A stretch of 64,000 bases of DNA from an uncultured Eubacteriales bacterium (GTDB taxonomy: Bacteria > Bacillota > Sulfobacillia > Fermentithermobacillales > Fermentithermobacillaceae), in the NCBI GenBank assembly GCA_964406505.1, contig CAYORX010000007.1, positions 10,841-74,840 of the forward strand. Reading direction: 5' to 3'. Under the pieces are notes generated by a model. The model saw only the letters and a program-made list of their open reading frames with translations. It did not search any database and was not told where the DNA came from. Position 1 is the first letter of the stretch; each line of letters starts with the position of its first letter. Below are positions 1-54,091 of this stretch, in pieces. The translations under genes and the position numbers were made by a program.

Positions 1-462
1 TGCAGCATTTGTAGCTTTGTTGGGTCTAAAAGTAAAAAAGAAATAAGCGAGTCCCAAGACAGTTCCAAAAACCATAACTATGTTATCTATGGAATTTAAA
101 GGAATAAGCGTACCCTGAATCTGCCTTACGAAATCACTTTCTATAGCTTTTATAGATAAGGCAGCACCGATACCAGTCAAGAACGCCATAGGCCACCTTG
201 CTAACCATTGAATTTGGGGAAAAAGTTTCGTAAACAGCACAATACCCAAAGCAGTTGGAATTAATGCCAAGAAACTACCTCTTTGGGTAACTGGTACTAC
301 AACCTGTCTTTCCACAACGCTCCAGGCCATAACCAATGCATACCCCGCCGCCACACCAACATAGAGGTTCTGGAAAACCCTAAAGACTTTGTTTTCTTTC
401 CACAAAAAGCTATAAATGCCAATGGTACAAATGGCACCTGCCCATACTATTGCTGTATCCAC
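1..462 (-). CDS. polytopic membrane protein, paralog of 51983..52576 (cassette gene D, copy 1); 5' end present, 3' end runs off the window start
   Basis: Minus-strand frame read by eye from GTG at 460-462 (SD GGAGG at 470-474) gives MDTAIVWAGAICTIGIYSFLWKENKVFRVFQNLYVGVAAGYALVMAW..., which aligns with ORF 51983..52576 (..VWKENPFYRSAEHLYVGISAGHAVVMAY..). It is absent from the ORF track because no stop codon lies inside the window. Confidence 0.5.
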   Translation of the reverse strand, partial: MDTAIVWAGAICTIGIYSFLWKENKVFRVFQNLYVGVAAGYALVMAWSVVERQVVVPVTQRGSFLALIPTALGIVLFTKLFPQIQWLARWPMAFLTGIGAALSIKAIESDFVRQIQGTLIPLNSIDNIVMVFGTVLGLAYFFFTFRPNKATNAA

Positions 463-473
463 ATTGCCACCTC

Positions 474-1313
474 CTAATTAAATTCACGATTATTCTTCTG
501 CGACTTTTCTATGAAAAATGCAATGTTCCCAAGGATTACAATAAGAACAATAACCATATGCCCAAGTGATTGAGCATCCATAGCTGCAGTTGCAGCACCA
601 GCTTGATCAATAGCTATTTCATATTCGGCAGCGGATTTTAAGCCGCCTCCAAGCAATCCCACTAACTGTCCTGATTGCAAATATGCCTCGTTTTGGGGAC
701 CCATAACCGCCACTACCCCGCAAGCCACGAGCACGTCAAACCTCGTCTGAACTTGCCTAACCCACTCGGCAGGGCCTGGAATACCGGTAGAAAATTCAGC
801 TATTAAGTCAAAATCAGCCGCAGTACTAACTCCTTGCATTATTGGATAAGAATCCAGGCTCTTTCCTCGTGAATCTGTCGGAAACACTTCTTTAATGTTT
901 TGACCGAAAGCAGATATAGCGGTATCCGAACCTGCGGCAAAACCAAGATGTATTATATCTTCGCCATAAACTTTACCTTGTTCTTCCCAATACCCGACAG
1001 CTTTCGTTCCAAATTGAAATCCTGCTTCAATAAACGCAACACAGATAACTTTCACATCTTTACTCATAGCATGAGTAAGAACGGCCTGTGCTTGGGGATC
1101 CACGTCCGGGCCACCACCAATAGAATAATCAAAAACTAAAAGCATTTTGTCGCCCGCTTGTAAGTTTTCGACCGCATCCACAAAAGATTGTGTTGGTCTT
1201 GTCACCTCTATCGGAATTCCTAACGGTCTCACAAGGGGCACTACAACTACTAGGAAAATCACAATATACAGTATCCTACTATCCATATGGGTGAATTTAT
1301 TTAGTAAGTTCAT
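474..1313 (-). CDS. uncharacterised bitopic membrane protein (N- and C-terminal TM helices around a ~230-aa soluble domain); cassette gene C, copy 1
   Basis: 293-aa ORF. The likely true start is the internal ATG (MNLLNKF..) at 1313, preceded by AAGGAGGG, which removes the 28-nt overlap with the upstream gene. Paralog of 52577..53425 (shared ..AMDAQSLGH..IVLIVIL.. C-terminal TM and many other blocks). Confidence 0.6.
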   Translation of the reverse strand: MNLLNKFTHMDSRILYIVIFLVVVVPLVRPLGIPIEVTRPTQSFVDAVENLQAGDKMLLVFDYSIGGGPDVDPQAQAVLTHAMSKDVKVICVAFIEAGFQFGTKAVGYWEEQGKVYGEDIIHLGFAAGSDTAISAFGQNIKEVFPTDSRGKSLDSYPIMQGVSTAADFDLIAEFSTGIPGPAEWVRQVQTRFDVLVACGVVAVMGPQNEAYLQSGQLVGLLGGGLKSAAEYEIAIDQAGAATAAMDAQSLGHMVIVLIVILGNIAFFIEKSQKNNREFN

Positions 1314-1326
1314 TCGTGTCCCTCCT

Positions 1327-1947
1327 TCATTCACCGCCGAAATAAGCCCTATCAATACCTACCAACACCCTAAATCCTGTAACTACCATACCAAGAGCAG
1401 CACCTATCATAATCGCTCTATTACCGGCGACGTTTGGAATTTTCATCAACCATTCAGAGGATTTTCCGAAAAATGGGGAAATTAGATTGCCAATTGGTGC
1501 ATTACCGATCATGACCAGAATCCCAGCAATAAGAAGGAATGCAGCATCTATGTTCCTAGCCCTGAAAGCCCGTCTTGCGGCAGATGCTATAAAAAAAATC
1601 ATCATTGAAAACATTGCAGTCCCTAAAGGCTGAAACAATCCATCATATAAAAAAGTGTAGAAGTTCGCTAAATTTTTCGATAACCCCGCTATAGCCATTA
1701 ATATCATACCGGCAAATACAAAAAGTGACATCCACCAATCTTCTTGCTTTGTTTTAATTCGTTTGCCATGCACGACCGACAAATTTGCCGCGGCTAGCGC
1801 CATAGCTAATGCAGAAACGATCGTTCCCCAGTTTTGAACTGTTTCAGCAATGGGAACGACTGCAGGCAAGAATCCTTTTAAAAAATACTCTAAGAGAATT
1901 ATTATTCCGACGGTAAAGCCTATAGCTATTGGTACTTCTTTTCGCAA
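1327..1947 (-). CDS. uncharacterised polytopic membrane protein (~5-6 TM); cassette gene B, copy 1
   Basis: 206-aa hydrophobic ORF with a TTG start preceded by GGAGGT. Paralog of 53429..54061 (..NVAGNRAIMIGAALGMVVTGFRVLVGIDRAYFG vs ..NTAGMRAIMMGAALGVVSTAMKMFLGIDKSYLG). Confidence 0.6.
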   Translation of the reverse strand: MRKEVPIAIGFTVGIIILLEYFLKGFLPAVVPIAETVQNWGTIVSALAMALAAANLSVVHGKRIKTKQEDWWMSLFVFAGMILMAIAGLSKNLANFYTFLYDGLFQPLGTAMFSMMIFFIASAARRAFRARNIDAAFLLIAGILVMIGNAPIGNLISPFFGKSSEWLMKIPNVAGNRAIMIGAALGMVVTGFRVLVGIDRAYFGGE

Positions 1948-1960
1948 TTACGGCACCTCC

Positions 1961-2734
1961 TTACCATTTAAGCAATTCGACTAACTGCATATTTCCCATA
2001 GTTGCCAGCAAGGCCCCAAGAACAATAAAAATAAATGCAAATACTTTTCCATAATCTTGTGCGGCAAGATTTGCTACCTTTTCCGGGTCTTTGCTCAGGT
2101 AAGCGCCGCCTGCAAATATTTCTTCTCCTATAAGCGTATAGTCACAAGATGCCGCAAAAAACGGAACTTGCATAGCTCTAGCTGTGCCAGCAATTGTTAC
2201 AGCACCGACCATTGCCGCAGCCTCAGACAGCATCATCGACTCAGCCTGAAACTCACCAACCATAATGACACTCGCCGTTTTGTCTTGATTCATTATGGTA
2301 AGACAACCCGCTACAAAAGCAAACTGTTGAGATGACACAAATTGAACTGTTTCCGATTTGACAACTTCTGGTCTGCCCTCTTCAAGGTAAGATTGCCTAA
2401 CTACAGCATCAGCTACTGGATATACGTTCGCAGCGGCTATGGCAACTTTCAGTTCTGTATCGTATTTCGCTGTGAGCCTTGCCACGTGGCCAAGTATTTC
2501 GAGCCCTGCTAAATTCTGCGCAGCGCCTGCCGTGGTAATTTCCGTTCTTCCAGGAACATATAATACGGGGCGCCCAAGTTCTGTGGCCCTGCCCACAGCT
2601 TCTTCAATAGCATCTAAACCCGGAATTCTGCGAATATAATAAACCTTTCCTCCCGCAGCACGCTTCATAAAATAAACAACTATACTTAAAAAAACTATGA
2701 AGATGAAAAAAACTGTTTGCTTTCCCTCAACCAA
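1961..2734 (-). CDS. uncharacterised bitopic membrane protein (N- and C-terminal TM helices around a soluble domain); cassette gene A, copy 1
   Basis: The ORF track gives 1961..2752 (TTG). A TTG at 2734 sits 8-9 nt after GGAGGT and aligns better with the ATG start of the paralog 54092..54868 (MIVAGKQ vs ILVEGKQ). Conserved blocks include IRR.P.LDA.EEAVGRATE.GRPV and DY.LIGEEI.A..AYLS. Confidence 0.55.
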   Translation of the reverse strand: MVEGKQTVFFIFIVFLSIVVYFMKRAAGGKVYYIRRIPGLDAIEEAVGRATELGRPVLYVPGRTEITTAGAAQNLAGLEILGHVARLTAKYDTELKVAIAAANVYPVADAVVRQSYLEEGRPEVVKSETVQFVSSQQFAFVAGCLTIMNQDKTASVIMVGEFQAESMMLSEAAAMVGAVTIAGTARAMQVPFFAASCDYTLIGEEIFAGGAYLSKDPEKVANLAAQDYGKVFAFIFIVLGALLATMGNMQLVELLKW

Positions 2735-2890
2735 AATTGATGCACCTCCCAATAGTTAATTGTAAAAGCCTTCAAGATCCACCTCCAATTATTAGATTTC
2801 CTATGATTTCAGATATTCGCGGCTTTATTGTGGTTTTCCTTTAAAAATTTCATTAAATCCCAATATTCTGTATATTTTAGATATTTTTAA

Positions 2891-2930
2891 AAAATCAACA
2901 CCCCTACCACTTACGGTAGAGGTGTTTTAT
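2891..2930. terminator. rho-independent terminator, bidirectional (serves the amidase gene ending at 2949 on the minus strand)
   Basis: aaaaaa-ACACCCCTACC-acttac-GGTAGAGGTGT-tttatt: a 10/11-bp stem with an A-tract on one side and a T-tract on the other. Confidence 0.6.
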
Positions 2931-2948: not shown

Positions 2949-4415
2949 TTATGGTATGCTTAAAGGCATCTTCCGATATTGGGTAATATTTTCGAACGAA
3001 TAAGCGATCTTAATTAGCGTACCTTCGCTCCACGGGCGGCCGAGAATTTCTAAACCTATGGGGACTCCGATAGGAGCATCGTCGGTGGGCGAAGAAAACC
3101 CTGCAGGTACCACAACCGATGGAAAGCCCGTGACCGAGCCCAATGCCCCATTTCTTTCAATTTGACTTCCGCCCACAAGACACGCCAACCGTTTTTGATG
3201 GGGAAATATGAGAGCTTCAATATTTTCTTTAGCCATTATCTCCATTACTTTGTCCTGAAGTTTAGCTTTTTTTAGAAGTCTGTCTTTGTAATCTACACTA
3301 TCAGTGCTTAAAGTTTGTGCGTGCTTAAGGTTCTCTTCAATATTTTTATGATACTTACCTGAGGCCAAAACATCGGCCATTGAATGTACTGATGCTCTAT
3401 CGCCAAGATTAACGAGATAGCTATCAAGATCACGTTCCAAATCATGCAAATGTACGCTAATTTCAGATACAATCTGATCTACATCTAGAATCTCTTCTAT
3501 ATCTATTAACGTAGCGCCGTTTTCAGCCATTACTTCGATACATCGTCTGATTGCGCTGTTTACATCCTCGTGTTCCGGGCTTAGCCCAAAAAAGCTTTTT
3601 AGTACACCGAGCCTTACACCTTCAAGGCCACTATGTTCAAGATATTTCGTATAGGATTCGGGAATGTTTTTCACTGCCCATGCCGTGGATGGATCACCTG
3701 GATCGTATCCTGAAATCACATCCAAAACTTTCACAGAATCTTCCACCGTTCTTGTGATTGGACCAGCGGCATCTTGGGTAAGAGAATATGGGATAATCCC
3801 ATTACGGCTTACCAATCCGATCGTCGGCCTAATTCCAACTAAACTACAAGCTGATGCCGGTGACCTTATAGAGTTTATCGTATCAGTACCAATACCTATC
3901 ACACCAAAGTTTGCAGCGATACCCGCCCCAGTTCCTCCGCTAGATCCGCCTGGTGTCCTTGTAAGGTCATAAGGATTAAGTGTCTGGCCCAGAATTGAAC
4001 TCACAGTTTCTCCCCAAACAGCAAACTCGTGGAGGTTAACTTTCGCCAATATTATGGCACCAGCATCCAAAAGTTTTTTAGTAATAAACGCATCTTCTTT
4101 AGGAACATAATCTTGCAGACTTAATGAACCGCCTGTGGTAGGCATATCTTTTGTATCTACATTGTCCTTAAGCAAAACCGGTATGCCGTGGAGTAGCTTT
4201 AATGAACCGTTTTGCTTAAACTCCTTATCTTTTTCGTCAGCTATATCCAAAGCCTTGGGATTCAAATATATAATGGAGTTTAGTGACGGTCCTTTTTGAT
4301 CATAGGCCTCTATCCTTTTCAAATAACCTTCTATCAACTGCCGAAAACTTAGTTCGCCACGCCTCACTGCCTCGTGAATACCGGCAATAGTCAATTCATT
4401 AAAACTTATTGCCAT
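2949..4415 (-). CDS. amidase (amidase-signature family)
   Basis: GGSSGG motif plus the Ser-cisSer-Lys context (..TPGGSSGGTGAGIAA.., ..GTDTINSIRSPAS..). About 490 aa. Start probably ATG at 4415 (MAISFNELT..); the ORF track extends to 4427. Confidence 0.85.
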   Translation of the reverse strand: MAISFNELTIAGIHEAVRRGELSFRQLIEGYLKRIEAYDQKGPSLNSIIYLNPKALDIADEKDKEFKQNGSLKLLHGIPVLLKDNVDTKDMPTTGGSLSLQDYVPKEDAFITKKLLDAGAIILAKVNLHEFAVWGETVSSILGQTLNPYDLTRTPGGSSGGTGAGIAANFGVIGIGTDTINSIRSPASACSLVGIRPTIGLVSRNGIIPYSLTQDAAGPITRTVEDSVKVLDVISGYDPGDPSTAWAVKNIPESYTKYLEHSGLEGVRLGVLKSFFGLSPEHEDVNSAIRRCIEVMAENGATLIDIEEILDVDQIVSEISVHLHDLERDLDSYLVNLGDRASVHSMADVLASGKYHKNIEENLKHAQTLSTDSVDYKDRLLKKAKLQDKVMEIMAKENIEALIFPHQKRLACLVGGSQIERNGALGSVTGFPSVVVPAGFSSPTDDAPIGVPIGLEILGRPWSEGTLIKIAYSFENITQYRKMPLSIP

Positions 4416-4503
4416 TAATATCACCAACCCTTTAAATTCTTATCCAACAATTCGCGTAGCACACAAAACTATCCAAAATTCACATTCAGAATTTGTGGTT
4501 GTT

Positions 4504-5685: not shown

Positions 5686-5770
5686 GGAAAACCTCCTCTA
5701 TTATCCTGCTATCTACCTACCTGATTGCCTGTAAGATAAACTTATCACTGCTTGCAATTAATTGTATACT

Positions 5771-24713: not shown

Positions 24714-25436
24714 TTAAGTTATATTTCGGGTTAGGTTTCGCCAAACTAAGTGGTTTTGAATTTCGTCGGGACTTCCTTGACATTGTATCTGCCCGTGATC
24801 TAAAACAATAACCCGCGAAGCTAAAGCCTGCACTTCTGCAAAATCATGAGTAACTAATACAGTGGTGGTTTGCTGCTCTTTTAAAATTTGTTTAAACTGC
24901 GCGACAAGGCCTTGCCGGGTAATTACATCGACAGAAGCAAAGGGTTCATCCAAAAATAAAACTTCCGGTTCAAGTACGAAAGCCCTAGCTAGCGCAGTTC
25001 TTTGGGCTTCTCCACCCGACAATGTATAAGCGGGTTGGTCTGCCAAATGAATAAGCCCGAAACGTTCAAGCCATCCATCAATATAGCTTGCATTTCTTTT
25101 GATTTTTCTCAAAGATAACCCTAGTTTTACGTTTTCTTTTACAGTCCCTTCAAGCAAGAGTGGTTCTTGGAATACTACCGCCATCCGGCGTCTTACATCT
25201 AATACATTGACGCGGGTAACCTTTTCTTGCTTAAAAATTACACTCCCGCGTTGAGGAGGGTCTAGGCATGCCATAACAGAAATCAAAGTGCTTTTCCCCG
25301 CACCATTAGGTCCTATAACAGCTACAACTTCTCCCGGATTCACATACATTTCAAACACATCAAGAATCTTCCGAGTCCCTTTCACTACTTCAACTTTGTG
25401 AATTCTAAGAACCGACGGTTTTTTCGCAAACCCCAT
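24714..25436 (-). CDS. tupC: tungstate ABC transporter ATP-binding protein
   Basis: Walker A GPNGAGKST, LSGGE signature, Walker B LFLDEP. In operon with tupB and tupA. Confidence 0.7.
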   Translation of the reverse strand: MGFAKKPSVLRIHKVEVVKGTRKILDVFEMYVNPGEVVAVIGPNGAGKSTLISVMACLDPPQRGSVIFKQEKVTRVNVLDVRRRMAVVFQEPLLLEGTVKENVKLGLSLRKIKRNASYIDGWLERFGLIHLADQPAYTLSGGEAQRTALARAFVLEPEVLFLDEPFASVDVITRQGLVAQFKQILKEQQTTTVLVTHDFAEVQALASRVIVLDHGQIQCQGSPDEIQNHLVWRNLTRNIT

Positions 25437-25482: not shown

Positions 25483-26181
25483 TTAAGCTTTTTGACGTTT
25501 TTGCTGCAATCGCGTAAGTAAAGCCGTAATTCCATAACTAAAAGCCACTAGTATGAACCCCAAAGCAATCGCAACATCAAAATCACCTTTCCTGATCTCT
25601 AACACAATAGACGTCGTCAAGACCCTAGTTTCATGAAGTATATTTCCTCCGACAGCCATTGAGGCACCGACCTCAGCAATTACCCTTCCAAGTCCGGCAA
25701 TAATGGCTCCTAGCAATCCGAATCTGCATTCTTTAAGAAGTAACCACCAGAGCTGCAAAGGCGAGGCCCCTAGGGCAAGAATCTGTAACCTTAATTTGGG
25801 GTTTAACTGCTGAACAGCCGCCATTGTAAGGCCCGTAACAATAGGGGTAGCAATCAAGGCTTGAGCTATGATCATTGCAGCCGGTGTATACATTAACCTA
25901 AAAGTACCTAAAGGCCCGTTTCTCCATAAAAACAAACTAACCCAAAGACCTGCTACGGTAGGTGGAAGAGCCATCCCGGCATTTACGAACGAAATTACTA
26001 CGTTTCTACCTCTGAAACGGCCTATTGCAAGGCAAAGTCCCAATGGAAGCCCGATCATGACGCTTATCAATGTGGCAGACCCAGATACTTTTATAGTGAG
26101 AATTACAATTTCGACAATTGCGGGGTCTCCCTTCAGTATCAGCAATATAGCTTGTTTGAGTCCTCCCCAAAGAAATTTCAC
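25483..26181 (-). CDS. tupB: tungstate ABC transporter permease
   Basis: 232-aa BPD-type permease. Adjacent to tupA. Confidence 0.7.
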   Translation of the reverse strand: MKFLWGGLKQAILLILKGDPAIVEIVILTIKVSGSATLISVMIGLPLGLCLAIGRFRGRNVVISFVNAGMALPPTVAGLWVSLFLWRNGPLGTFRLMYTPAAMIIAQALIATPIVTGLTMAAVQQLNPKLRLQILALGASPLQLWWLLLKECRFGLLGAIIAGLGRVIAEVGASMAVGGNILHETRVLTTSIVLEIRKGDFDVAIALGFILVAFSYGITALLTRLQQKRQKA

Positions 26182-26298: not shown

Positions 26299-27159
26299 TT
26301 AGTTAGGTTCCGATTTACCCGCATCGGGAACAAATAACGGTTCGCCAAATTTGTCAACACCGAAATCGGCGATTATGTCTTGAACTTCTTCTGAAATCAT
26401 AAACTCCACAAATGCTTGTGCACCGTCTGCATTAACCTTTTCAAATTTTTCCGGATTTACTTGCATCACATGATAAATATTCAAAAGAATAAGATCTTTT
26501 TCAACTAATACTTCGAGGTCCAGGGTATCTTTAAGTGCAAGGTATGTACCTCTATCGGTAAATACGTACGCCTCTTTTTCAGACGCAATAGCTAAAGTGT
26601 CGCCCATCCCCGCACCTGCTTCAACATACCAGCTACCATCAGGCTCGATTTCCGCCGTTTTCCAGATTTCCAATTCTTTCTTATGGGTACCTGAATCGTC
26701 ACCCCTCGATACGAAAGTAGATTGATTTTCAGCTATCTGGGCATAAGCAACCGCTGCAGATGTTTGACCTTTTATACCCGCAGGATCGCTTTCAGGGCCG
26801 CAAATAATAAAATCGTTATGCATAACTAGCTGCCTATTTACAGCGTGACCACTTTCTACAATTTCTTCTTCAGATGCAGGCGCGTGCGTTAAAAGTACAT
26901 CAGCTTCACCTTCTTTTCCCAGAGCTAGTGCCGCACCGGTACCTACTGCTACTGTTTTTACTTTATATCCTGTTTCTTCCTCAAAAATGGGAATTAACTT
27001 GTCAAGTAAGCCGCTGTCTTGAGTGCTCGTGGTTGTAGCTAATATCACTTCAGTGACCGAAGTCTCTTGAGGCTGGCAACCTACAATGGTCGTTACGATC
27101 GTAATTGCTAAAATTACCATAGAAAATAATTTAAGACTCTTTAGTTTTGATTTCATCAT
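26299..27159 (-). CDS. tupA: tungstate ABC transporter substrate-binding lipoprotein
   Basis: Lipoprotein signal (..IVGC) followed by ILATTTSTQDSGLLD, the TTTS oxyanion-binding signature of TupA. Confidence 0.75.
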   Translation of the reverse strand: MMKSKLKSLKLFSMVILAITIVTTIVGCQPQETSVTEVILATTTSTQDSGLLDKLIPIFEEETGYKVKTVAVGTGAALALGKEGEADVLLTHAPASEEEIVESGHAVNRQLVMHNDFIICGPESDPAGIKGQTSAAVAYAQIAENQSTFVSRGDDSGTHKKELEIWKTAEIEPDGSWYVEAGAGMGDTLAIASEKEAYVFTDRGTYLALKDTLDLEVLVEKDLILLNIYHVMQVNPEKFEKVNADGAQAFVEFMISEEVQDIIADFGVDKFGEPLFVPDAGKSEPN

Positions 27160-27384
27160 TCACTACCCCCCAGGTGGTTTTCATCAACTTACCTAAACTG
27201 CGAAACTACGTTCACCTCCTGAATATTTGATTCAAGCGCCTACAAATCGATAGTTTGTACAATTTCCCACAAGATAAAATAAGCGCCTCCTCTGGCGTTT
27301 ATGATATTAATAGAGATCATGCGCATTGGCAGATCGCTTACCTTTCCAACCGTAATTACAGATGTACCGGCAAAGATCCCTATT

Positions 27385-27638: not shown

Positions 27639-28454
27639 TTATTTGGCTGCAACCGTCGAACTTGTTAACAACATACGATCATTTACATATCCTTTACCAC
27701 TATGAGCCTCAAACAAACTAAGAACATCTTGTGGTGTCATTTGTCTTCTATCATCACCTTTGATGTTTTGTACGATCTGTCCTTCATGCATCATAATAGT
27801 CCTATTACCCATAGCTAAAGAATCAGCAATATTATGGGTAACCATTAAAGTCGTCAAACCTAAAGTCCTGACCAGTTTTTCTGTAAGTTCCAACACTTTT
27901 CTGCCGGTTTTAGGGTCTAACGACGCAGTGTGCTCATCTAATAGCAAAAGCCTAGGTTGATTAAACACCGCCATCAGAAGCGTTAACGCTTGCCTTTGCC
28001 CCCCCGACAACAGACCTACGGGAGCCTTAAGCCGATTTTCTAGGTCCAATCCAAAACGAGATAATTCTTTCTTCATACGAGTTTGTTGTTTTTCATCAAT
28101 GGCTTTTCTAAATCCTCTGTTGTGTCCTCTACGGGCCGCAATTGACAAATTTTCTTCTATTGTCATGGTAGCTGCAGTGCCCACCATAGGATCTTGGAAT
28201 ACGCGCCCGATAAACGCCGCTCTTTTGTAGCCAGGAACATCGGTAATATCCTTTCCATCTAAAAAAATTTTCCCATGCTCTAGAGAAAACACACCAGCTA
28301 TAGCGTTTAGCATAGTAGACTTACCCGCCCCGTTGCTTCCGATTACGGTTACAAAATCTCCTGGTTTCAATGTTAGATCTAGGTCGTGTAAAACTCTTTT
28401 TTCATTGACGCTATCTTGATTAAAAATCTTAGTTATTCTCTTCAGCCGGAGCAT
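27639..28454 (-). CDS. ABC transporter ATP-binding protein
   Basis: GSNGAGKST, LSGGQRQ, LLLDEHTASLD. 271 aa. Overlaps the upstream permease by 26 nt. Confidence 0.85.
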   Translation of the reverse strand: MLRLKRITKIFNQDSVNEKRVLHDLDLTLKPGDFVTVIGSNGAGKSTMLNAIAGVFSLEHGKIFLDGKDITDVPGYKRAAFIGRVFQDPMVGTAATMTIEENLSIAARRGHNRGFRKAIDEKQQTRMKKELSRFGLDLENRLKAPVGLLSGGQRQALTLLMAVFNQPRLLLLDEHTASLDPKTGRKVLELTEKLVRTLGLTTLMVTHNIADSLAMGNRTIMMHEGQIVQNIKGDDRRQMTPQDVLSLFEAHSGKGYVNDRMLLTSSTVAAK

Positions 28455-29343
28455 TCAACCACCTTCTGACCCCGAAAGTTTTCCTTTTAAATCTAAACCT
28501 TGGTAAAGACAATGCAAAAATTACTAATACTGCAGTAACCAATTTTAAATCGGTTGTCTGAAGCCCCATTCTAAGGGCTAAGGAAATTACAATTCTATAA
28601 GTTAGGGAACCGCATATGACCGAAACTAAAGACCTTGGGATTGAACGAGGAGATATCAAAGTTTCTCCTATGATGACTGCTGCAAGACCTGATACTATGG
28701 TACCTACACCCATACCCATATCCGCAAAACCCTGCAGTTGCGCCACTGTCGCGCCTGATAAAGCAACCAATGCGTTTCCCAAAGACAGTCCAAGCACCTT
28801 CATCCGGTCTACATTAACTCCTTGGCTTTCAACCATAATCTCATTGTCACCTGTACCTCTAAGCGCTAAACCGATCTCTGTTCTGAAAAACCAACACAAG
28901 AACAGTATAATCGTTACGATTAAGATGATACCGAAACATACCCATCGGTATTGATTAGGCACCCCTAAACCCAAAAGACCATTTGCCACCGTTTCGGCCC
29001 CTAATATAGGTAAGTTAGCTCTACCCATAATTCTTAAATTAACCGAATAAAGACCAGTCATAGTTAAAATCCCAGCTAATAATGGTTCTATCCCAAACTT
29101 AGTATGCAAAACGCCTGTAATTAAGCCCGATAAAGCGCCGACGGCCGGGGCAAAGGCAAAACCTAACCACGGACTGTAATTTTTGCTAATTAGCACCGCT
29201 ACAACCGATGCCCCTAATGTGATACTGCCATCAACTGTTAGATCCGGAAAATCCAATACTTTATAAGTGATATGTACCCCTAGGGCCATCACTCCAAAAA
29301 CTAAACCTAATTCCACCGCCCCTAATAAAACCCTAAAAGTCAA
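28429..29343 (-). CDS. ABC transporter permease (partner of ABC_sub_bind/DUF534-type binding protein)
   Basis: 304-aa polytopic membrane protein between the SBP and ATPase genes. Confidence 0.7.
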   Translation of the reverse strand: MTFRVLLGAVELGLVFGVMALGVHITYKVLDFPDLTVDGSITLGASVVAVLISKNYSPWLGFAFAPAVGALSGLITGVLHTKFGIEPLLAGILTMTGLYSVNLRIMGRANLPILGAETVANGLLGLGVPNQYRWVCFGIILIVTIILFLCWFFRTEIGLALRGTGDNEIMVESQGVNVDRMKVLGLSLGNALVALSGATVAQLQGFADMGMGVGTIVSGLAAVIIGETLISPRSIPRSLVSVICGSLTYRIVISLALRMGLQTTDLKLVTAVLVIFALSLPRFRFKRKTFGVRRWLNAPAEENN

Positions 29344-29361: not shown

Positions 29362-30378
29362 TTACTCGGTTATAATTTCCACTGCTTTGTCCAATATTTC
29401 TTGTGGCACATCTACATTGACTAACTCTGCAACCTTCAGATTCACTATCACTGACACTTCATCTTGAGTTTCTACAGGAATATTCGCGGGACTTTCTCCC
29501 TGAATAATTTTTAAAGCTTGTTTGCCGGTTTTCTCTCCAAGTTTGTAATAATCGACTCCGGCAGTTGCTAATCCACCTCTAGCTACAGAATCGCCCTCTC
29601 CTGGGAACAAAGGTATGTTCTCTTCATGACATACTTTTACAACACCCTCAAAAGCAGAAACTACCGTGTTATCTGTCGGAACATATATGGCATCAACTCT
29701 ACCTATTAAAGATTGTGCGGCTTGCAAAACCTCGCTAGAATTAGTCGGCGTCGCTTCTATTACCGTAAGTTGGTTGTCTTCGGCGTATCGTTTCACTTCA
29801 TCTACCTGTACTAAAGAGTTTTCTTCACCAGAATTATAAATAACGCCTAACGTTTCTATCTCGGGCACAATCGCTGTTGCCAACTCCAATTGAGTACTTA
29901 TAGATACATAATCAGAGGTACCTGTTACGTTAGTATTTGGTTTGTCCATGCTTTCAACTAGCTTTGCTCCTACAGGATCAGTTACAGCAGTAATCAAAAT
30001 AGGAGTTTCATCTGTTACGTTTGCCATTGCTTGAGCGGCAGGGGTAGCAATAGCTAGAATCAGATTGAATTCATCTTCTGCAAACTGTTGCGCAATAGAC
30101 CTGATAGTCGGCTGATCTCCTTCGCCATTTTTGATAACGACATCTAGTTGTTTTCCTTCTTCATACCCATTAGCCTTTAATACATCAAGAAAACCTTCCC
30201 GGGTAGCATCTAGCGATGGATGAGTTGCAAATTGAATGATTCCTATTCTTATCATTTCGGTTTCCGTAGCACTGCTTATCCCTTCCTGGGAAACGCAACC
30301 ACTAAGGTAAGCTACCGACAAACTGATTACCATTAACACCGCCAATTTGACTTTCAGTTTAAGCAAATTCTGTTTCAT
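29362..30378 (-). CDS. ABC transporter substrate-binding lipoprotein, ABC_sub_bind (DUF534) type
   Basis: Lipobox LSGC. IGIIQFATHPSLDATREGF..ILAIATPAAQA.. is typical of the DUF534 family (often annotated as putative Trp/Tyr transport). Confidence 0.7.
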   Translation of the reverse strand: MKQNLLKLKVKLAVLMVISLSVAYLSGCVSQEGISSATETEMIRIGIIQFATHPSLDATREGFLDVLKANGYEEGKQLDVVIKNGEGDQPTIRSIAQQFAEDEFNLILAIATPAAQAMANVTDETPILITAVTDPVGAKLVESMDKPNTNVTGTSDYVSISTQLELATAIVPEIETLGVIYNSGEENSLVQVDEVKRYAEDNQLTVIEATPTNSSEVLQAAQSLIGRVDAIYVPTDNTVVSAFEGVVKVCHEENIPLFPGEGDSVARGGLATAGVDYYKLGEKTGKQALKIIQGESPANIPVETQDEVSVIVNLKVAELVNVDVPQEILDKAVEIITE

Positions 30379-40790: not shown

Positions 40791-41753
40791 GTGCGAAAGT
40801 TCGGAAGTTGTATACTCGTCATAATGCTCCTTGCAAGTTTGGCCGCAAGTTGTACGACAACCGGTAATCAAGGAAACAAAAGCAGATTTATCTCCATCGC
40901 TACAAGTGGAGTAAGCGGTACCTTCTACCCCATCGGTGGAGCCATGGCAGAAGTTCTTTCCGATAAACTTCCTGGAGTAACAGCTACTGCCGAAGCAACT
41001 GGCGGAGGAGTGGAGAACCTTAGGCTTGTTGAAGACAATGAAGTTTTCGCAGGCGTAATAAGTGTTACAACGCTAGCTGCAGCGTACGAAGGACGTGAGC
41101 CCTTTGAAGAAAATGAATTCACCGAAGTACGCGCAGCATTTAACATGTTCCCCGGATATATGTACATGGTAACTACTGACCCCAATATCAAGTCGATATC
41201 CCAAATAAAAGGTAAACGCGTAACCGTAGGTGATGCAGGTTCTGCTAGCGTTACTGATGCTCAAGACTCGCTGCGGGCACTAGGAATCGAATTTGAAGAT
41301 ATAAAACCTGTATATCTTGGGAAATCAAATGCCATGAACGCTCTTAGAGATGGGCTTGCAGATATAGCCATAGAATTTGCCGGAGGTAGACCAGCGTTTA
41401 TTTCTGACTTCATGGCCACACGAAAATTATACTTTATTCCCATCACTGATGAAGAGACAGAAAAGGTTTCTAGCCAATTACCGTATTTTGGCGGTGTAAT
41501 TCCTGCTTCATGGTTCGGAACACCCGAAGACATACCTACTTTAGTCACTTACGTAGCAATGGTCGTCAATGACCAATCTTCAGAAGAAGACGTTTACGAT
41601 TTCGTCAAAACCATATTCGAAAATCTAGGGAAGATACAAAAATCTCATCCGGCTGCAGGCGATATGTGCCTTGACAACGCCCACCTAGATGCTGGGGCTC
41701 CTTTTCATCCGGGGGCTGAAAAATATTACCAAGAACAAGGAATAGTCAAATGA
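40791..41753 (+). CDS. TRAP transporter solute receptor, TAXI family (lipoprotein)
   Basis: Lipobox ..LAASC. ISIATSGVSGTFYPIGGAMAEV.. is typical of TAXI (TIGR02122-like). Confidence 0.8.
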   Translation: MRKFGSCILVIMLLASLAASCTTTGNQGNKSRFISIATSGVSGTFYPIGGAMAEVLSDKLPGVTATAEATGGGVENLRLVEDNEVFAGVISVTTLAAAYEGREPFEENEFTEVRAAFNMFPGYMYMVTTDPNIKSISQIKGKRVTVGDAGSASVTDAQDSLRALGIEFEDIKPVYLGKSNAMNALRDGLADIAIEFAGGRPAFISDFMATRKLYFIPITDEETEKVSSQLPYFGGVIPASWFGTPEDIPTLVTYVAMVVNDQSSEEDVYDFVKTIFENLGKIQKSHPAAGDMCLDNAHLDAGAPFHPGAEKYYQEQGIVK

Positions 41754-41828
41754 CAGTCGCAGACAGGCGATGGGCAGGCATAAAACCTGCCCATCCCTCC
41801 TTTATCAACAACCTAACTTAATCATAAT

Positions 41829-43739
41829 GTGGAGGGTCATCAATTGAACATGATCTCAAAACGTCTTACCGAAAAGGGCATTACAGCACAATGGGTACAC
41901 CAAAGCGTTACAGCCACAGCCTTTGCATTTCCTATTGTCACCCTGGTCACTGTTCTTTTTCAATTAATGAGCCCAGAACAAACCAGAGCAATGTTTGTAG
42001 GCATTGTGCTCGCTTTTGTTTTTTTGCTGTTTCCAACTTCAAAATCTCATAGTAAAAACCGTATGCTGTTGGCTTTAGATGTTTTATTATCTATAACAAT
42101 ATTGGCGATATGGACCTATATAAGTTTAGGATGGTTCGGAATTGCAGCACGAACTGGAGCATGGACTCACTTGGATATAATAGTCGCCTTAACCGGCTGT
42201 GTTCTCGTACTAGAAGCTACCCGCCGAACGGCCGGATGGGCATTTCTTATCATCTGCGGTGCATTTTTGCTTTACGCTAGGTTTGGTTACTATTTCCCAT
42301 CCTTATTTGTACACCGTGGATTTTCATGGCAGCGACTTGCCTGTTCATTGTGCCTTACTACACAAGGGTTTTTAGGTGTGGGTACATCGGTTATCCTCGA
42401 TTATGTTTTTCCCTTTTTAATTGTAGGAGGACTTTTTAGAGCTGTAGGGGGCATGGATGTATTAGGAGAGATAGCTAAACGTTTGGTGCAAGGGAAACCC
42501 GGTGGGGAAGCAAAGATTTCCGTAGTATCTAGCGCTGCATTTGGAATGTTTTCGGGAAGCGCTATCGCAAATGTAGCTACAACAGGCAATTTCACGATAC
42601 CCTTAATGGCAAAAACCGGCTATTCACCCGCTTTCGCCGCTGCAGTAGAAACATGCGCCTCTACTGGTGGCCAGTTTATGCCCCCGGTTCTCGGAGCAGC
42701 AGCGTTTCTTATTGTAGAATACACGGGAGTACCATACGTAACTGTAATGCTAGCTTCACTGATTCCTGCTTTTTTATATTTTATGAGTGTTTACGTACGG
42801 ATTGACCGCGAGGCACATCGATTGGGATTAGAACCTCAGACGGTTACAACTGAACCTTTTATTGATGTGCTTAAATTAGCTGCTCCCTACATCATCACTT
42901 TTGCATTGCTTGTGTTAGGTATTGTTTGGTGGACACCTTTACGTGCGGTGGTTGTCTCGACATTATTTCTTCTTATCTGTGGAATATTCCGTCCCAACAT
43001 GCGTCTCAGTTGGGATTCTTTCAAAAAAGCAATGCTTGAATCTACGTCAGGAATACTTTTAACTGGTACGGCGTGCGTAGCTGTAGGAACCTTGGTAGTT
43101 GTAATGGGTATCACCGGTTTAGGTATTAGGCTATCTAGCGCAATTTTAACCTTAACTAGCGGAAACCTCATGCTTGCTTTAGTACTGACAGCGCTTGCTG
43201 CAACCGTGCTAGGAATGGGACTTCCTCCATCAGTAGTTTATATTTTTTGCGCAAGCACCATGGCACCCGCATTGACGGAACTTAGAGTAGGGTTACTGCC
43301 CGCTCACCTGTTCATCTTTTATTTTGGAGCACTGGCAATGATCACACCTCCTGTGGGCATGGCTTCGTTTACTGCAGCAACCATCGCCGATGAACATCCT
43401 TTAAAAGTTGGATGGGAAGCAACTAAATTAAGTATTTCAGCCTTCGTGCTTCCATTTTTCTTTGTATTCCAACCCGCACTTTTACTTCAGGGAACTGGTC
43501 TAGAAATCGCCCAGGTCGTAATTACATCTGCATTAGGTGTTTTGGCCACAACTATCGGCGTCGGAGGTTATCTCATCGCTCCCATTAGCAAAATCCAACG
43601 TGTGCTGTGGTTGATTACAGGTTTACTTTTAATTGATGCAAGATTTTTAACGGATATTGTGGCACTATGCCTAGGCGGAGTCTTAGTTTTCTTGCAACTC
43701 CGTGCCCGAGATCACCTTAAATGCCAACCGTCATTTTAA
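41829..43739 (+). CDS. TRAP transporter fused permease (TAXI-associated DctQ-DctM fusion)
   Basis: 636-aa polytopic membrane protein immediately downstream of the TAXI receptor. Exact start ambiguous (GTG 41829, TTG 41844 or ATG 41850). Confidence 0.75.
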   Translation: MEGHQLNMISKRLTEKGITAQWVHQSVTATAFAFPIVTLVTVLFQLMSPEQTRAMFVGIVLAFVFLLFPTSKSHSKNRMLLALDVLLSITILAIWTYISLGWFGIAARTGAWTHLDIIVALTGCVLVLEATRRTAGWAFLIICGAFLLYARFGYYFPSLFVHRGFSWQRLACSLCLTTQGFLGVGTSVILDYVFPFLIVGGLFRAVGGMDVLGEIAKRLVQGKPGGEAKISVVSSAAFGMFSGSAIANVATTGNFTIPLMAKTGYSPAFAAAVETCASTGGQFMPPVLGAAAFLIVEYTGVPYVTVMLASLIPAFLYFMSVYVRIDREAHRLGLEPQTVTTEPFIDVLKLAAPYIITFALLVLGIVWWTPLRAVVVSTLFLLICGIFRPNMRLSWDSFKKAMLESTSGILLTGTACVAVGTLVVVMGITGLGIRLSSAILTLTSGNLMLALVLTALAATVLGMGLPPSVVYIFCASTMAPALTELRVGLLPAHLFIFYFGALAMITPPVGMASFTAATIADEHPLKVGWEATKLSISAFVLPFFFVFQPALLLQGTGLEIAQVVITSALGVLATTIGVGGYLIAPISKIQRVLWLITGLLLIDARFLTDIVALCLGGVLVFLQLRARDHLKCQPSF

Positions 43740-51709: not shown

Positions 51710-51900
51710 AGTATCATCCCCTTTTGGATTTGATTAAAGAAAAACGGCAGGAATTCGATTAGGTGTTGAGCCGTGCTTTGAAAATTCCAAATCATCGCAT
51801 ATTAAGCGGCGTTTACCCGTATCCAAATTATATAAAATTTTGGGTTTTTTCGCAATGTGAGTAACTTTCAAACTTAGATAAATTCAAATAAACACAAATA

Positions 51901-51944
51901 TTGAGGGTGCTTAAAGAAATTTTTAAACTTATCTGCACCCTCAA
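51901..51944 (-). terminator. rho-independent terminator after cassette copy 2
   Basis: TTGAGGGTGC-24 nt-GCACCCTCAA with a 10-bp perfect stem. On the minus strand it is followed by TATTTGTGTTTATTTG. Confidence 0.55.
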
Positions 51945-51982
51945 CCGAGTTTTGTTAATATGATTTTATTGGAATCGCGGTA

Positions 51983-52576
51983 CTATTTTATAATTCCCAA
52001 CCAATCGCCAAGAATAAACTGTATTCTACCGATCATAAGCGCCATTCGACCCATAACGGTAGTGCCAAAAGCGGCTCCGAATGCCACCATCAATACCATT
52101 CGACCTGAGCGAGGCAAGATACTTATAGGCCCTTTTAGCTCCTTAGAGAAAAAGAAATAACTTAGCGATGCGATTACAAACAACAAGAGCAACACTTCGT
52201 CAACGCTGCCAACTCTAATGGTAGCCCCCATTTGCTGGGTAAAATCACCATGGATTGCTCCGCGCACCGCTACACCTGTTCCAATTCCTACCATAACCGC
52301 AACAGGATATCTAGCAAGCCAGGCTTCTTTGGTATACCTAGCATATAGAAGTACGCCAAGTAGCATGGGAAGAACCCATACCATTTCTCCGGCTGCTATG
52401 GGCTGAAACGCTGAATCCCTAACATTGGTGTAAGCCATTACAACCGCATGACCTGCACTAATGCCAACGTATAAGTGTTCCGCCGAGCGATAGAAGGGGT
52501 TTTCTTTCCACACCAGGCTTAGTATCGCAATAGTAATTAAACTTGCTATCCAAGTACCAATATTTAAACTCATCAA
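51983..52576 (-). CDS. uncharacterised polytopic membrane protein; cassette gene D, copy 2
   Basis: 197 aa, ~5-6 TM. Paralog of the partial gene at 1..462. The C-terminal G.R..M...A.G...GT.VMGRMALMIG block resembles the C-terminus of cassette gene B. Confidence 0.6.
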   Translation of the reverse strand: MMSLNIGTWIASLITIAILSLVWKENPFYRSAEHLYVGISAGHAVVMAYTNVRDSAFQPIAAGEMVWVLPMLLGVLLYARYTKEAWLARYPVAVMVGIGTGVAVRGAIHGDFTQQMGATIRVGSVDEVLLLLFVIASLSYFFFSKELKGPISILPRSGRMVLMVAFGAAFGTTVMGRMALMIGRIQFILGDWLGIIK

Positions 52577-53425
52577 CTACACACCCCTTCCTGTGTGGCC
52601 GTCAGCTGATTTTTGCTGCAAAGCGTCACCGATGTTCCGAAGTATAATCAGCACTATAATCAACAAGTGAGCTAAAGACTGCGCATCCATTGCAGCTACT
52701 GCACTGCCCGGATCATCTAACAATAGCTCATACTCCGCAGCACCGGGAAGACCACCAAGCGTACCTAACACTTGTTTAGCATGTACATATGGCGCCACCT
52801 GAGTAATGGCAACGGCTGGTACACCGCAGACTAAAGGTGTTTTATAAGCACCATAAACTTGGCGCACGTAATCTTCGGGTCCCGGAGATCCCGGTGCAAT
52901 AGTGACAATCATGTCTAGATCTCCAGCGTCCTTAATGCCTTGCATAATTGGAAAAGATGAACTGGCAGCCCCAGAATAATCGGTGCTAAACGTTCCCACA
53001 ACATCTGACGCAAAAGCAGCGATTGCACCTTGCCCTCCGGCCCTGAAACCAAGATTGACATAATCTACTCCGTATTCTTTTTGCTCTGTCCATCCAGTAA
53101 GTTCAAAAGCTTTTTCAGCCATTAAAGGCCCATATTGAAAGAATGAAAGTCCAATTACCTTCACGTCCTTTTCAAGCAAATGCTTTAAAACAGCAAAAGC
53201 TTGAGGTTCCATTTCCGCCGCGCTGCCTGGTGAATAATCGAATCCAAAAACCACAGAAGAACCGGGTTCAAGGGCATCTATTACATTATATGAGTTCTGA
53301 GTATCACGACTAATCTTTATCGGTATGCCAATAGGCTTAATTAAAGGCCCGGCCAGCACGACTAACAAAATCACATACATCCACGTTTTAGGGATTGACT
53401 GTAGGCGTTCTATCATTGTATGCAC
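52577..53425 (-). CDS. uncharacterised bitopic membrane protein; cassette gene C, copy 2
   Basis: 282 aa. N-TM, soluble domain, C-TM (..AMDAQSLAHLLIIVLIIL). SD TAGGAGGTG before the ATG. Confidence 0.6.
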   Translation of the reverse strand: MHTMIERLQSIPKTWMYVILLVVLAGPLIKPIGIPIKISRDTQNSYNVIDALEPGSSVVFGFDYSPGSAAEMEPQAFAVLKHLLEKDVKVIGLSFFQYGPLMAEKAFELTGWTEQKEYGVDYVNLGFRAGGQGAIAAFASDVVGTFSTDYSGAASSSFPIMQGIKDAGDLDMIVTIAPGSPGPEDYVRQVYGAYKTPLVCGVPAVAITQVAPYVHAKQVLGTLGGLPGAAEYELLLDDPGSAVAAMDAQSLAHLLIIVLIILRNIGDALQQKSADGHTGRGV

Positions 53426-53428
53426 CTC

Positions 53429-54061: not shown

Positions 54062-54091
54062 ATCAACCTCACCTCCGTGCTTCTCTAAAAT

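Follow-up and report, generated by a model that had tools for sequence, protein, structure and literature searches.

DUF6754 (PF20539) is an uncharacterised protein family, and its Pfam entry describes it only as a domain of unknown function. Literature searches on DUF6754, on GlmL or ASKHA proteins in connection with membranes, on the Fermentithermobacillaceae and on generic descriptions found no relevant work, and no paper was found on the partnership of DUF6754 with the B, C and D proteins described here, or on its topology, multi-copy habit or GlmL-type neighbours. Among described systems, the TRAP/TAXI (DctPQM) and TTT (TctABC) transporters resemble the module analysed here in being multi-subunit, with small and large polytopic subunits, many substrate-specific paralogues and a place in catabolic clusters. 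Their binding component is extracytoplasmic, is membrane-tethered in monoderms and archaea, and can be likened to subunit C of the module. GlmL and MutL are accessory proteins of the B12-dependent glutamate and ornithine mutases, and they share PF13941 with an ATPase that is associated with the module.

Two ancient paralogues in one window

The window (the whole stretch of DNA analysed here, 64 kb) carries two anciently diverged paralogues of one conserved four-gene membrane-protein operon, A-B-C-D. The copies lie at 1..2752 and 51983..54868, both on the minus strand and with identical gene order, as a preliminary description of this DNA had stated. Their features are as follows.

1..462, minus: D1, polytopic membrane protein, first 154 of 198 codons, the rest cut by the window edge (from translation; 36% identity to D2)
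474..1313, minus: C1, TM helix, extracytoplasmic alpha/beta domain, TM helix, 279 aa (39% identity to C2, E 1e-59)
1327..1947, minus: B1, polytopic membrane protein, about 6 TM helices, predicted N-in/C-in, 206 aa (38% identity to B2; topology from alignment hydropathy and K+R counts)
1961..2734, minus: A1, DUF6754 protein, 257 aa (Pfam PF20539, E 4.6e-85; 43% identity to A2)
2897..2926, minus: intrinsic-terminator-like hairpin, 13-bp stem and T-run, between the amidase gene (2949..4427) and A1
51900..51945, minus: terminator-like hairpin, 11-bp stem, -19 kcal/mol, z -3.6, then a U-rich tract, directly after D2
51983..52576, minus: D2, polytopic membrane protein, 196-197 aa, abutting the C2 stop codon (BLASTP to D1)
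52577..53416, minus: C2, TM helix, six-stranded outward alpha/beta domain, long C-terminal TM helix, 279 aa (AF2 pLDDT 94.5)
53429..54061, minus: B2, membrane protein, about 6 TM helices, 210 aa (BLASTP to B1; hydropathy)
54092..54868, minus: A2, DUF6754 protein, 258 aa (Pfam PF20539, E 1.3e-81)

Each gene aligns with its counterpart by BLASTP over essentially its full length, D1 being partial, with E values of 4e-73 for A, 2e-51 for B, 1e-59 for C and 6e-32 for D. Judged from these alignments the similarity is far above chance in all four pairs, which excludes the possibility that the genes at the window start and those at 52-55 kb are not homologous. Protein identity is 36-43% and nucleotide identity 45-56%; an earlier estimate by eye of about 45% for the A proteins was roughly right. 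The partial gene at 1..462, previously found by hand translation, is in the frame proposed for it, and the NCBI contig JBEFFB010040945.1 completes its product to 198 aa. Hydropathy, together with structure models of A and C, agrees with the proposal that all the cassette genes encode membrane proteins.

Several starts likely lie inside the mechanically predicted ORFs. A1 likely begins at TTG 2734 rather than 2752, with the Shine-Dalgarno (SD) sequence GGGAGGTG 8 nt before it, and C1 likely begins at ATG 1313 rather than 1355; public gene calls on an identical contig also give 257 and 279 aa, respectively. The C2 ORF reaches GTG 53425, but its likely start is ATG 53416 (279 aa), and the 279-aa protein P0121 matches it with 100% identity across 99% of the query. 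For D2, ATG 52573 is a possible start. Intergenic gaps within both cassettes are 0-30 nt, and in both copies the genes are co-directional, tightly spaced and each homologous to genes elsewhere. The hairpin between the amidase gene and A1, a strong terminator, makes cassette 1 a separate transcription unit. Each window cassette is a tight, self-contained operon with its own transcription unit. SD sequences of the GGAGG type precede nearly every gene in both copies, as had been noted, but the reported likeness of the GAAAT(C/T)T..GGAGGTG sequences upstream of gene A amounts to a hexamer plus the SD only. In copy 1 this sequence sits about 50 nt upstream of the real A1 start, which has a second SD of its own. 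Orthologous loci keep only the SD and start codon upstream of A, so this likeness carries no weight.

The A protein consists of a TM helix, a cytoplasmic alpha/beta domain (DUF6754) and a second TM helix; in the AF2 model of A2 (pLDDT 83) the alpha/beta domain lies between TM helices at 6-28 and 218-246. The orientation follows from the A proteins of diderms, which have a signal peptide and an FN3 domain before TM1, so that DUF6754 is cytoplasmic. C is anchored at both ends with its alpha/beta domain outward: its N- and C-terminal tails are basic (K+R 3.1 and 3.5, respectively), whereas the domain between them is acidic. B and D contribute about 6 each to the roughly 16 TM helices of the four subunits. 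Foldseek searches of the PDB with the A and C models gave generic Rossmann-like matches only (E > 1e-3, TM score about 0.3), and the C fold had no PDB neighbour at E < 1e-3. Folds weakly similar to the A model were those of SIS and flavodoxin-like domains. At least 90% of homologues keep His59 of A, a residue that is Leu in window copy 1. Internal paralogy between A and C or between B and D, which could have indicated an inverted-topology pair, was rejected, with no BLASTP match and hhalign probabilities of 2% and 5%. Long C-family matches carry unrelated extensions or insertions rather than B or D, so no Rosetta-stone fusions were seen.

The divergence of the copies is old. The proportion of synonymous differences (pS) is 0.66-0.82, and dS reaches 1.6 in A and is saturated in the other three genes, which leaves dN/dS inestimable. 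No repeat of 40 nt or more is shared by the two copies. Synonymous saturation and the lack of a DNA-level repeat identify them as ancient paralogues. Each has its own orthologue in other MAGs of the Fermentithermobacillaceae, at 56-70% identity for copy 1 (locus L006) and 73-84% for copy 2 (L003/L004). The similarity of copy 1 to copy 2 (41%) is no greater than that to cassettes of other Bacillota (40-44%), so that a local duplication is not clear. The earlier view of an old duplication rather than a recent repeat stands as regards age and paralogy.

The interval between the copies

The preliminary description had the two copies bracketing a catabolic region of about 49 kb. If they were the direct-repeat ends of a mobile or recently duplicated catabolic island, the bracketing would be functional, and the copies do lie on the same strand, about 49 kb apart, with many peptidase and amidohydrolase genes between them. 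This reading is already contradicted, and we consider it very improbable. Beyond the low nucleotide identity, the saturated synonymous sites and the missing repeat, the GC content is uniform (0.40-0.44) and a Pfam scan of 47 intervening and flanking ORFs gave no match to a transposase or integrase family; identity, repeats, GC and mobility genes all fail to indicate a repeat-bounded mobile island or a recent segmental duplication. The interval also encodes unrelated and housekeeping functions, among them a copper P-type ATPase, SAICAR synthetase, AnmK, an epimerase, MinD-like Fe-S proteins and an ABC system with a Moco riboswitch. In related MAGs the orthologous cassettes of copy 2 and copy 1 stand in unrelated contexts: their flanks show no synteny with the window flanks, and the hydrolase neighbours of the window copies are not kept beside them. 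With each cassette a transcription unit of its own, the placement of the copies at the two ends of the interval seems coincidental, and their bracketing of it is without demonstrated meaning.

The immediate neighbours of the window cassettes have parallels at some other loci. A1 follows an amidase gene; A2 comes after genes for an M20 peptidase and a D-aminoacylase-like amidohydrolase, and is itself followed by a gene for a Ddl-like ligase. Genes for D-aminoacylase-like, amidohydrolase, M20, GGT, M55 or Ddl-like proteins recur near cassettes of other Bacillota and of archaea (L002, L010, L016, L017, L020, L021 and L095). PDB look-ups of two genes upstream of the copy-1 orthologue gave no match. 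A bona fide TAXI-TRAP system is encoded in the same window at 40791..43739.

A widespread module and its ATPase neighbours

The cassette belongs to a large, widespread family of no known function, for which duplication is itself ordinary. At least 583 GTDB species genomes encode relatives of A, with a range from Bacillota to Nitrospirota, Zixibacteria, Ignavibacteria, WOR-3, Eisenbacteria, Planctomycetota and Bathyarchaeia, and the module is present in archaea as well as in many bacterial phyla, in monoderms and diderms. Of 82 loci, 72 had A-B-C-D complete and in the conserved order, either once or as an array of several cassettes; most of the other 10 are cut by a contig end. As to whether other genomes carry one or two copies, a question raised with the preliminary description, multi-copy genomes are common, often with two or three cassettes in tandem: we found triples (L012, L014, L054), doubles (L024, L065, L079, L093) and a convergent pair (L021). 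Paralogous cassettes within a genome are usually 33-58% identical. The least conserved subunit is the outward-facing C (mean pairwise identity 35%, 7% near-invariant columns) and the most conserved the cytoplasmic A (47% and 17%); the C family comprises 5,525 cluster representatives at 50% identity.

Both A proteins are full-length members of PF20539, scoring 285 bits (A1, model positions 9-254) and 274 bits (A2, 12-254) against a gathering score of 27 bits for the 257-position model. B, C and D fall into no Pfam or NCBIfam family. A scan of 56 B and 52 D homologues gave no consistent weak Pfam matches; the one trace with regard to the TRAP, TAXI and TTT families was DUF3394 in 4 of the B homologues (best E 0.027). 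Sequence and profile searches of the PDB found no related structure for A, B, C or D; a weak match of D to ORM2 is probably noise from TM composition. None of the eight proteins matched a PADLOC model (E up to 0.01), so that none is assigned to a known anti-phage defence system. Three of the four proteins thus form large families for which we found no Pfam or NCBIfam model, solved structure or literature.

Across phyla, just three neighbours of the cassette are conserved: an ASKHA ATPase of the GlmL family, a 375-aa protein of high conservation and a small protein. They form a unit, in the order small protein, GlmL-like protein (about 610 aa) and 375-aa protein, that adjoins A-B-C-D in 27 of the 82 loci, in at least 7 phyla. 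The GlmL-like protein is an actin-fold ATPase by its match to PF13941 (E 4e-119), and the 375-aa partner has 52% column identity and many invariant glycines. In Alkalicella, Anaerobranca and a Bacillota MAG, unit and cassette are joined in an operon of seven genes. L012, L014 and L065 each have a single unit ahead of two or three tandem cassettes, and L038 has one ahead of at least two, the second being cut by the contig end. By tblastn the unit is missing from the 64-kb window, and it was not found in the 15 kb past its left end.

Possible functions and comparison with known systems

Our main reading, to which we give a probability of roughly 40%, is that the module is an undescribed multi-subunit solute uptake system whose paralogues differ in specificity. 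C would be the tethered, outward specificity or binding subunit, B and D would form the membrane path, and A would be a conserved cytoplasmic coupling or regulatory subunit. Paralogous cassettes would serve different substrates; in this genome of a peptide-degrading member of the Bacillota these could plausibly be small amides or peptides, possibly with D-amino acids, of the sort that the amidase, the M20 peptidase and the D-aminoacylase-like enzymes nearby would handle. This genome may encode the GlmL-family ATPase and its two partner proteins elsewhere, as an energising or accessory unit that the cassettes share. The multi-copy behaviour is typical of transporters diversified in specificity, and the conservation gradient from A to C and the hydrolase and ligase genes near cassettes here and in other Bacillota and archaea also argue for uptake. 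The suggestion that the window holds two substrate-specific versions of one system fits this family pattern of multiple copies, 33-58% identical paralogues and a variable C.

Several observations argue against uptake. No subunit is detectably related to any transporter family in Pfam, NCBIfam, PDB or fold searches, nor did these reveal an ATPase, a signature of ion coupling or the fold of a known binding protein in any of them. We know of no transporter that uses a GlmL-type ATPase, a 375-aa protein and a small protein as partners. The neighbours in Nitrospira and the FCB group are housekeeping rather than catabolic genes, the orthologues of both window copies have not kept the hydrolase neighbours, and terminators stand between cassettes and hydrolase genes. 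The regions upstream of the two cassettes gave neither a riboswitch nor a conserved leader that might reveal a ligand. The periplasmic FN3 domain on diderm A proteins hints at contact with a macromolecule.

Some of these points agree with a somewhat less probable reading, in which A-B-C-D supplies the membrane core of a machine that the GlmL-family ATPase, with its 375-aa and small partners, would drive by ATP and that would serve something other than nutrient uptake: export or assembly of an envelope component, an enzyme or repair complex bound to the membrane, or the remodelling of membranes. The window copies would then be extra membrane modules, with the ATPase unit encoded elsewhere. The recurrence of the unit beside the module in several phyla, the seven-gene operons, the single units that precede two or three cassettes, the FN3 domain, the housekeeping neighbours and the enzyme-like conservation of the 375-aa partner all speak for such a machine. 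Yet the unit is missing from two thirds of the loci, both window copies included; the occurrence of the module in archaea and in monoderms no less than in diderms speaks against an envelope-specific role; it would be unusual for a biogenesis machine to have many diverged paralogues in one genome; and the most variable subunit is the one that faces outward. We regard it as improbable that the cassettes are interchangeable membrane specificity modules of a so far unrecognised class of primary active transporter, or of machine spanning the membrane, that draws its power from the GlmL-family actin-fold ATPase and its 375-aa partner, with one ATPase unit serving several cassettes, including scattered ones such as the window pair. 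More doubtful still is a membrane sensor or signal-transducing complex in which the outward domain of C senses a ligand and the cytoplasmic domain of A passes the signal on to metabolic genes nearby. An architecture with one globular domain outside and one inside, linked through TM helices, would suit such a complex, and a PucR-type regulator lies with catabolic genes near the window cassettes and spore germinant-receptor genes adjoin one cassette locus; but no subunit has a kinase, HTH, GGDEF, PAS or other output domain, no regulator is conserved next to the cassette across loci, and the twelve further TM helices of B and D would be superfluous for sensing.

The uptake reading has a parallel in the TRAP/TAXI and TTT transporters, from which the module differs: it has no sequence or profile similarity to DctM, DctQ, TctA, TctB or any SBP family, its C subunit has one alpha/beta domain of six strands with an anchor at either end rather than the two lobes of a binding protein, and it has a fourth subunit with a conserved cytoplasmic domain. 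ABC importers with anchored or fused substrate-binding domains also have an inner engine subunit that is most conserved and an outer specificity subunit that is least so, and in them, as perhaps in the module with its one GlmL/375-aa pair before several cassettes, several specificity modules may share an energising unit. In contrast to these, the eight proteins have no ABC_tran, BPD_transp or P-loop ATPase match in Pfam or NCBIfam at E up to 1, nor do the B and D homologues, and the candidate ATPase, which lies outside the window, has the actin fold. The mannose-class PTS (IIA, IIB, IIC, IID) likewise has four components, with two membrane subunits and small alpha/beta flavodoxin-like cytoplasmic domains, whereas the module has no EIIC-Man or EIID-Man match in Pfam or NCBIfam, places its C domain outside the cell and, in copy 1, has another residue in place of the nearly invariant His59 of A. 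Membership in the Rnf/Nqr group is contradicted by the lack of any Rnf-Nqr match, by the mutually unrelated B and D and by the lack of conserved cysteine motifs in the cassette proteins. The associated ATPase itself falls below the NCBIfam cut-offs for GlmL and for the ornithine-pathway protein, has about 140 additional C-terminal aa and sits with membrane proteins instead of mutase subunits.

If the module is an uptake system, present annotation lacks a whole transporter family, with consequences for how metabolism is reconstructed in Nitrospira, Zixibacteria, Ignavibacteria, WOR-3, Bathyarchaeia and the proteolytic Bacillota found in anaerobic digesters. Should it act together with the GlmL-type ATPase, it could bring to light a new means by which ATP is coupled to a membrane process, and a module powered by an actin-fold protein would represent a form of energy coupling distinct from those of the ABC, P-type, ECF, TRAP and PTS systems and conserved from archaea to Nitrospira.

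The two copies of the cassette

Two copies of a four-gene cassette (A, B, C and D) are found in the window. Coordinates are from the ORF listing except for copy 1 D, which is an open frame running off the window start.

1961..2752, minus strand, copy 1 A
1327..1947, minus strand, copy 1 B
474..1355, minus strand, copy 1 C
1..462, minus strand, copy 1 D
54092..54868, minus strand, copy 2 A
53429..54061, minus strand, copy 2 B
52577..53425, minus strand, copy 2 C
51983..52576, minus strand, copy 2 D

The preliminary description had placed one and the same cassette at both ends of the window. This observation was correct, since the two copies agree in gene order, strand and tight spacing, and their genes are homologous. 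BLASTP alignments covering essentially the full length gave 43% identity for A (E 4e-73), 38% for B (E 2e-51), 39% for C (E 1e-59) and 36% for D (E 6e-32). The recovery of the complete D gene of copy 1, which had been proposed as a check, was achieved with an identical public contig (NCBI JBEFFB010040945.1, our locus L086) that supplies the missing end. In the public gene calls the A, B, C and D products of copy 1 are 257, 206, 279 and 198 amino acids long; the C product of copy 2 is the 279-residue protein P0121. The start of copy 1 A is most likely the TTG at 2734, because a Shine-Dalgarno (SD) sequence (GGGAGGTG) lies 8 nt upstream. The C genes most likely start at the ATG codons at 1313 (copy 1) and 53416 (copy 2). 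Two SD-like sequences lie 5' of copy 1 A on the minus strand, the distal one being GGAGGTG (2786..2780); after it, an out-of-frame TTG at 2775 (both within 2773-2786) opens a 26-codon ORF that overlaps the start of A.

The duplication had also been described as old rather than recent, and this is borne out. Codon-aligned nucleotide identity between the copies is 45-56%, with pS of 0.66-0.82; dS reaches 1.6 in A and is at saturation in the other three genes, so that dN/dS is not measurable. A search for DNA repeats of at least 40 nt linking the two cassettes found none. Each copy has an orthologue of its own in other Candidatus Fermentithermobacillaceae MAGs: L006 for copy 1 (56-70% identity), and L003 and L004 for copy 2 (73-84%). 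A neighbour-joining tree built on the joined A-B-C-D sequences of 67 cassettes places the two copies, with their respective orthologues, as sister pairs on a very short stem. The copies share 41% identity with each other and 40-44% with cassettes of other Bacillota, and are thus no closer mutually; they are therefore ancient paralogues. Paralogues inside one genome are usually 33-58% identical, so that the pair in the window is typical. As a duplication it is nothing unusual in this family.

Surroundings of the copies

Copy 1 comes after an amidase gene, with a strong terminator (2926..2897) in between. Copy 2 comes after genes for an M20-type peptidase and a D-aminoacylase-like amidohydrolase, lies ahead of a Ddl-like ATP-grasp gene, and is followed after D by a terminator-like hairpin (-19 kcal/mol, z -3.6). 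Peptide-related genes are numerous in the 49-kb interval, which encodes peptidases (M55, M28, S9, M20, M24), a pair of gamma-glutamyltranspeptidases, a member of the beta-lactamase family and an Asp/Glu racemase, together with a T-box-controlled ABC system, a TAXI-TRAP transporter, and permeases for lactate and for short-chain fatty acids. Other genes of the interval plainly have no such connection: those for a copper P-type ATPase, SAICAR synthetase, AnmK and an epimerase, for two Fe-S proteins resembling MinD, and for an ABC system under a Moco riboswitch. The genes flanking the orthologous cassettes (L003/L004/L083 and L006) are entirely different from those in the window, and no known riboswitch or conserved leader was found 5' of either cassette. 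The bracketing of a catabolic region, to which the preliminary description had given weight, is therefore best put down to chance, the genome being dense in genes for peptide catabolism, and co-variation of the cassettes with the intervening hydrolases, proposed as a check, is not seen among these orthologues. GC content is flat (0.40-0.44), and that the interval represents a mobile island is extremely improbable.

Two RNA elements were identified within the interval.

30470-30721, minus strand, T-box leader (Rfam RF00230, 116.8 bits)
27378-27502, minus strand, molybdenum/tungsten cofactor riboswitch (RF01055, 59.9 bits)

The T-box leader is upstream of an ABC system (ABC_sub_bind, 29362..30378; BPD_transp_2, 28429..29343; ATPase, 27639..28454); its specifier may, tentatively, be GUU (Val), as read from a GAA-GUU stretch of the alignment. 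The riboswitch precedes the genes of a PBP_like_2 ABC transporter (26299..27159, 25483..26181, 24714..25436); this operon probably serves to take up molybdate or tungstate and has no link with peptide catabolism. Two repeat regions lie between the ORFs at 59996..61501 and 63120..63977, where no ORF of at least 150 amino acids is listed: a 14-nt unit (TGCAGCATCGCCTG) repeated in tandem about 15 times, with a period that is not a multiple of 3 (61862-62141), and two tandem copies of a 158-nt unit with 96% identity (62496-62811). Past the left edge of the window, directly 3' of copy 1 (L086, 13098-16524 of JBEFFB010040945.1), are genes for ETF-beta, for an ETF-alpha that includes a ferredoxin domain, and for an FAD-linked oxidase. 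Such a set encodes an electron-bifurcating dehydrogenase for lactate or a 2-hydroxyacid; a PGA_cap gene is next.

The A-B-C-D family

The interest of the finding lies in the A-B-C-D family rather than in the duplication. A search with A retrieved no fewer than 5,995 clusters (90% identity), and a profile of the C family matched 5,525 cluster representatives at 50% identity among 1.84 billion (2,043 at E < 1e-30). At least 583 loci in GTDB species genomes encode A; groups among those listed are Bacillota, Nitrospirota, Zixibacteria, Ignavibacteria, WOR-3, Eisenbacteria, Edwardsbacteria, Planctomycetota, Desulfuromonadaceae, Bathyarchaeia and another archaeon. Carriers that can be cultured include Symbiobacterium thermophilum, Alkalicella caledoniensis, Anaerobranca gottschalkii and Nitrospira moscoviensis. 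Gene order is essentially invariant across 82 fetched loci. Whether other genomes carry one or two copies had been raised earlier: 63 of these loci hold a single cassette, and among the others are three tandem triples, several doubles and a convergent pair. Where a cassette is incomplete, a contig end has mostly truncated it. L093/L094 form an additional tandem double, and in several MAGs copies lie on separate contigs. The four genes are strictly co-inherited, and genomes have many diverged paralogues of them.

Both A proteins match DUF6754 over their full length (PF20539, E 5e-85 in copy 1 and 1e-81 in copy 2), and this is the sole family assignment that stands. No Pfam or NCBIfam model matched B, C or D, and none of the four proteins matched PADLOC. 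Sequence and profile searches of PDB gave no match except a weak one of D to ORM2, which is probably noise. Kinship between A and C, and between B and D, was rejected by hhalign (probabilities of 2% and 5%).

In the AlphaFold2 model of C (pLDDT 94.5), a six-stranded alpha/beta domain sits between a TM helix at the N-terminus and a long one at the C-terminus; that of A (pLDDT 83) has an alpha/beta domain between two TM segments. Foldseek searches of PDB with both models returned generic Rossmann-like neighbours only (E > 1e-3, TM ~0.3), among them GT-B halves and SIS or flavodoxin-like domains. In diderm phyla, TM1 of A is preceded by a signal peptide and an additional domain of about 100 residues; the profile of this domain matches FN3 domains of titin and fibronectin (E down to 3e-16 with a titin chain of two domains, and 5.5e-10 with one domain). 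The N-terminus of A is thus outside and the DUF6754 domain, which comes after a basic stretch, cytoplasmic; A has a GRATEMGRP/DYxLIGEE surface. The signal peptide and periplasmic FN3 domain were seen at seven loci from diderm phyla (L012, L014, L054, L079, L065, L077, L081); Bacillota and archaeal A proteins, both window copies included, are without the FN3 domain. The tails of C are basic (K+R 3.1 N-terminal, 3.5 C-terminal) and its domain acidic, so this domain, an ectodomain of about residues 35-245 in each copy, faces outward. B has 6 TM helices with both ends inside, and D has about 6; both carry conserved Arg, Asn, Glu and Gln residues. The module as a whole has four subunits in the membrane and some 16 TM helices; of its two alpha/beta domains, one faces outward and the other inward. 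When 67 cassettes are compared as one set, A comes out as the best conserved subunit (mean pairwise identity 47%, with 17% of columns at least 90% conserved) and C as the least (35% and 7%); the outward subunit evolves fastest and the inward one slowest.

Neighbouring genes and proposed function

Flanking ORFs from all loci were clustered, and one neighbourhood only is kept across phyla: a unit of a GlmL-type ATPase, a 375-residue protein and a small protein of about 95-100 residues. The ATPase is an actin-fold protein of the GlmL/MutL family, about 610 residues long (594-620; PF13941, E 4e-119), which scores under the NCBIfam cut-offs for known GlmL equivalogs. Its partner (371-375 residues) is very conserved, with a KOW-like C-terminus; no family or PDB relative of it was found. 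Some of these units form a seven-gene operon with the cassette, in Alkalicella, Anaerobranca and a Bacillota MAG; the proteins of the unit are encoded in Alkalicella caledoniensis within CP058559.1, 1434815-1455612.

L001, 9678-15944, small protein, A-B-C-D, ATPase, 371-375-residue protein
L090, 7723-13983, same arrangement
L092, 450-6663, same arrangement

A single unit lies ahead of 2-3 tandem cassettes at L012, L014 and L065, and ahead of at least two at L038, the second being truncated by the contig end.

Other neighbours are lineage-specific synteny, such as Memo in Nitrospira, and PtsI, a SIS-type isomerase and a nucleotidyltransferase in the FCB group. Amidohydrolase and peptidase genes recur near cassettes in Bacillota and the archaeon, whose genomes are rich in them; GGT, M20, M55, Amidohydro_1, Ddl-like, amidase and MlrC genes were also found near cassettes. 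A D-aminoacylase-like Amidohydro_3 gene adjoins cassettes at three independent Bacillota loci: between two tandem cassettes (L095, 3807-5315), upstream of the cassette (L020, ~5273-6889) and in the window (56584-58176).

Four membrane subunits, outward and inward domains, co-inheritance, paralogues and the gradient of rates are what is expected if the module takes up solutes as a system of several subunits and its paralogues have different substrates, a reading to which we give a probability of about 40%. C would then serve as the tethered subunit for binding or specificity, the path through the membrane would be made of B and D, and A would be a common coupling or regulatory part. Speculatively, local context points to small amides or peptides, perhaps with D-amino acids, as substrates. 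In the main rival, somewhat unlikely, the module would supply the membrane part to an ATP-dependent machine around the GlmL-type ATPase, and would not serve nutrient uptake. The unit adjoins A-B-C-D at 27 of the 82 loci by phmmer, and is absent from the window and from 15 kb past its left edge. That the module forms a category of its own, as a membrane system coupled to an actin-fold ATPase, is unlikely, and a sensor role more doubtful still.

No papers on DUF6754 or related topics were found in open-access text. The module failed every test of membership in the ABC, TRAP/TTT, PTS-Man, Rnf/Nqr and PADLOC families. Our leading reading is a membrane transport system of several subunits, drawn from families that are unclassified. 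As a solute uptake system, its working would most resemble that of binding-protein-dependent secondary transporters and of ABC importers with tethered binding domains.
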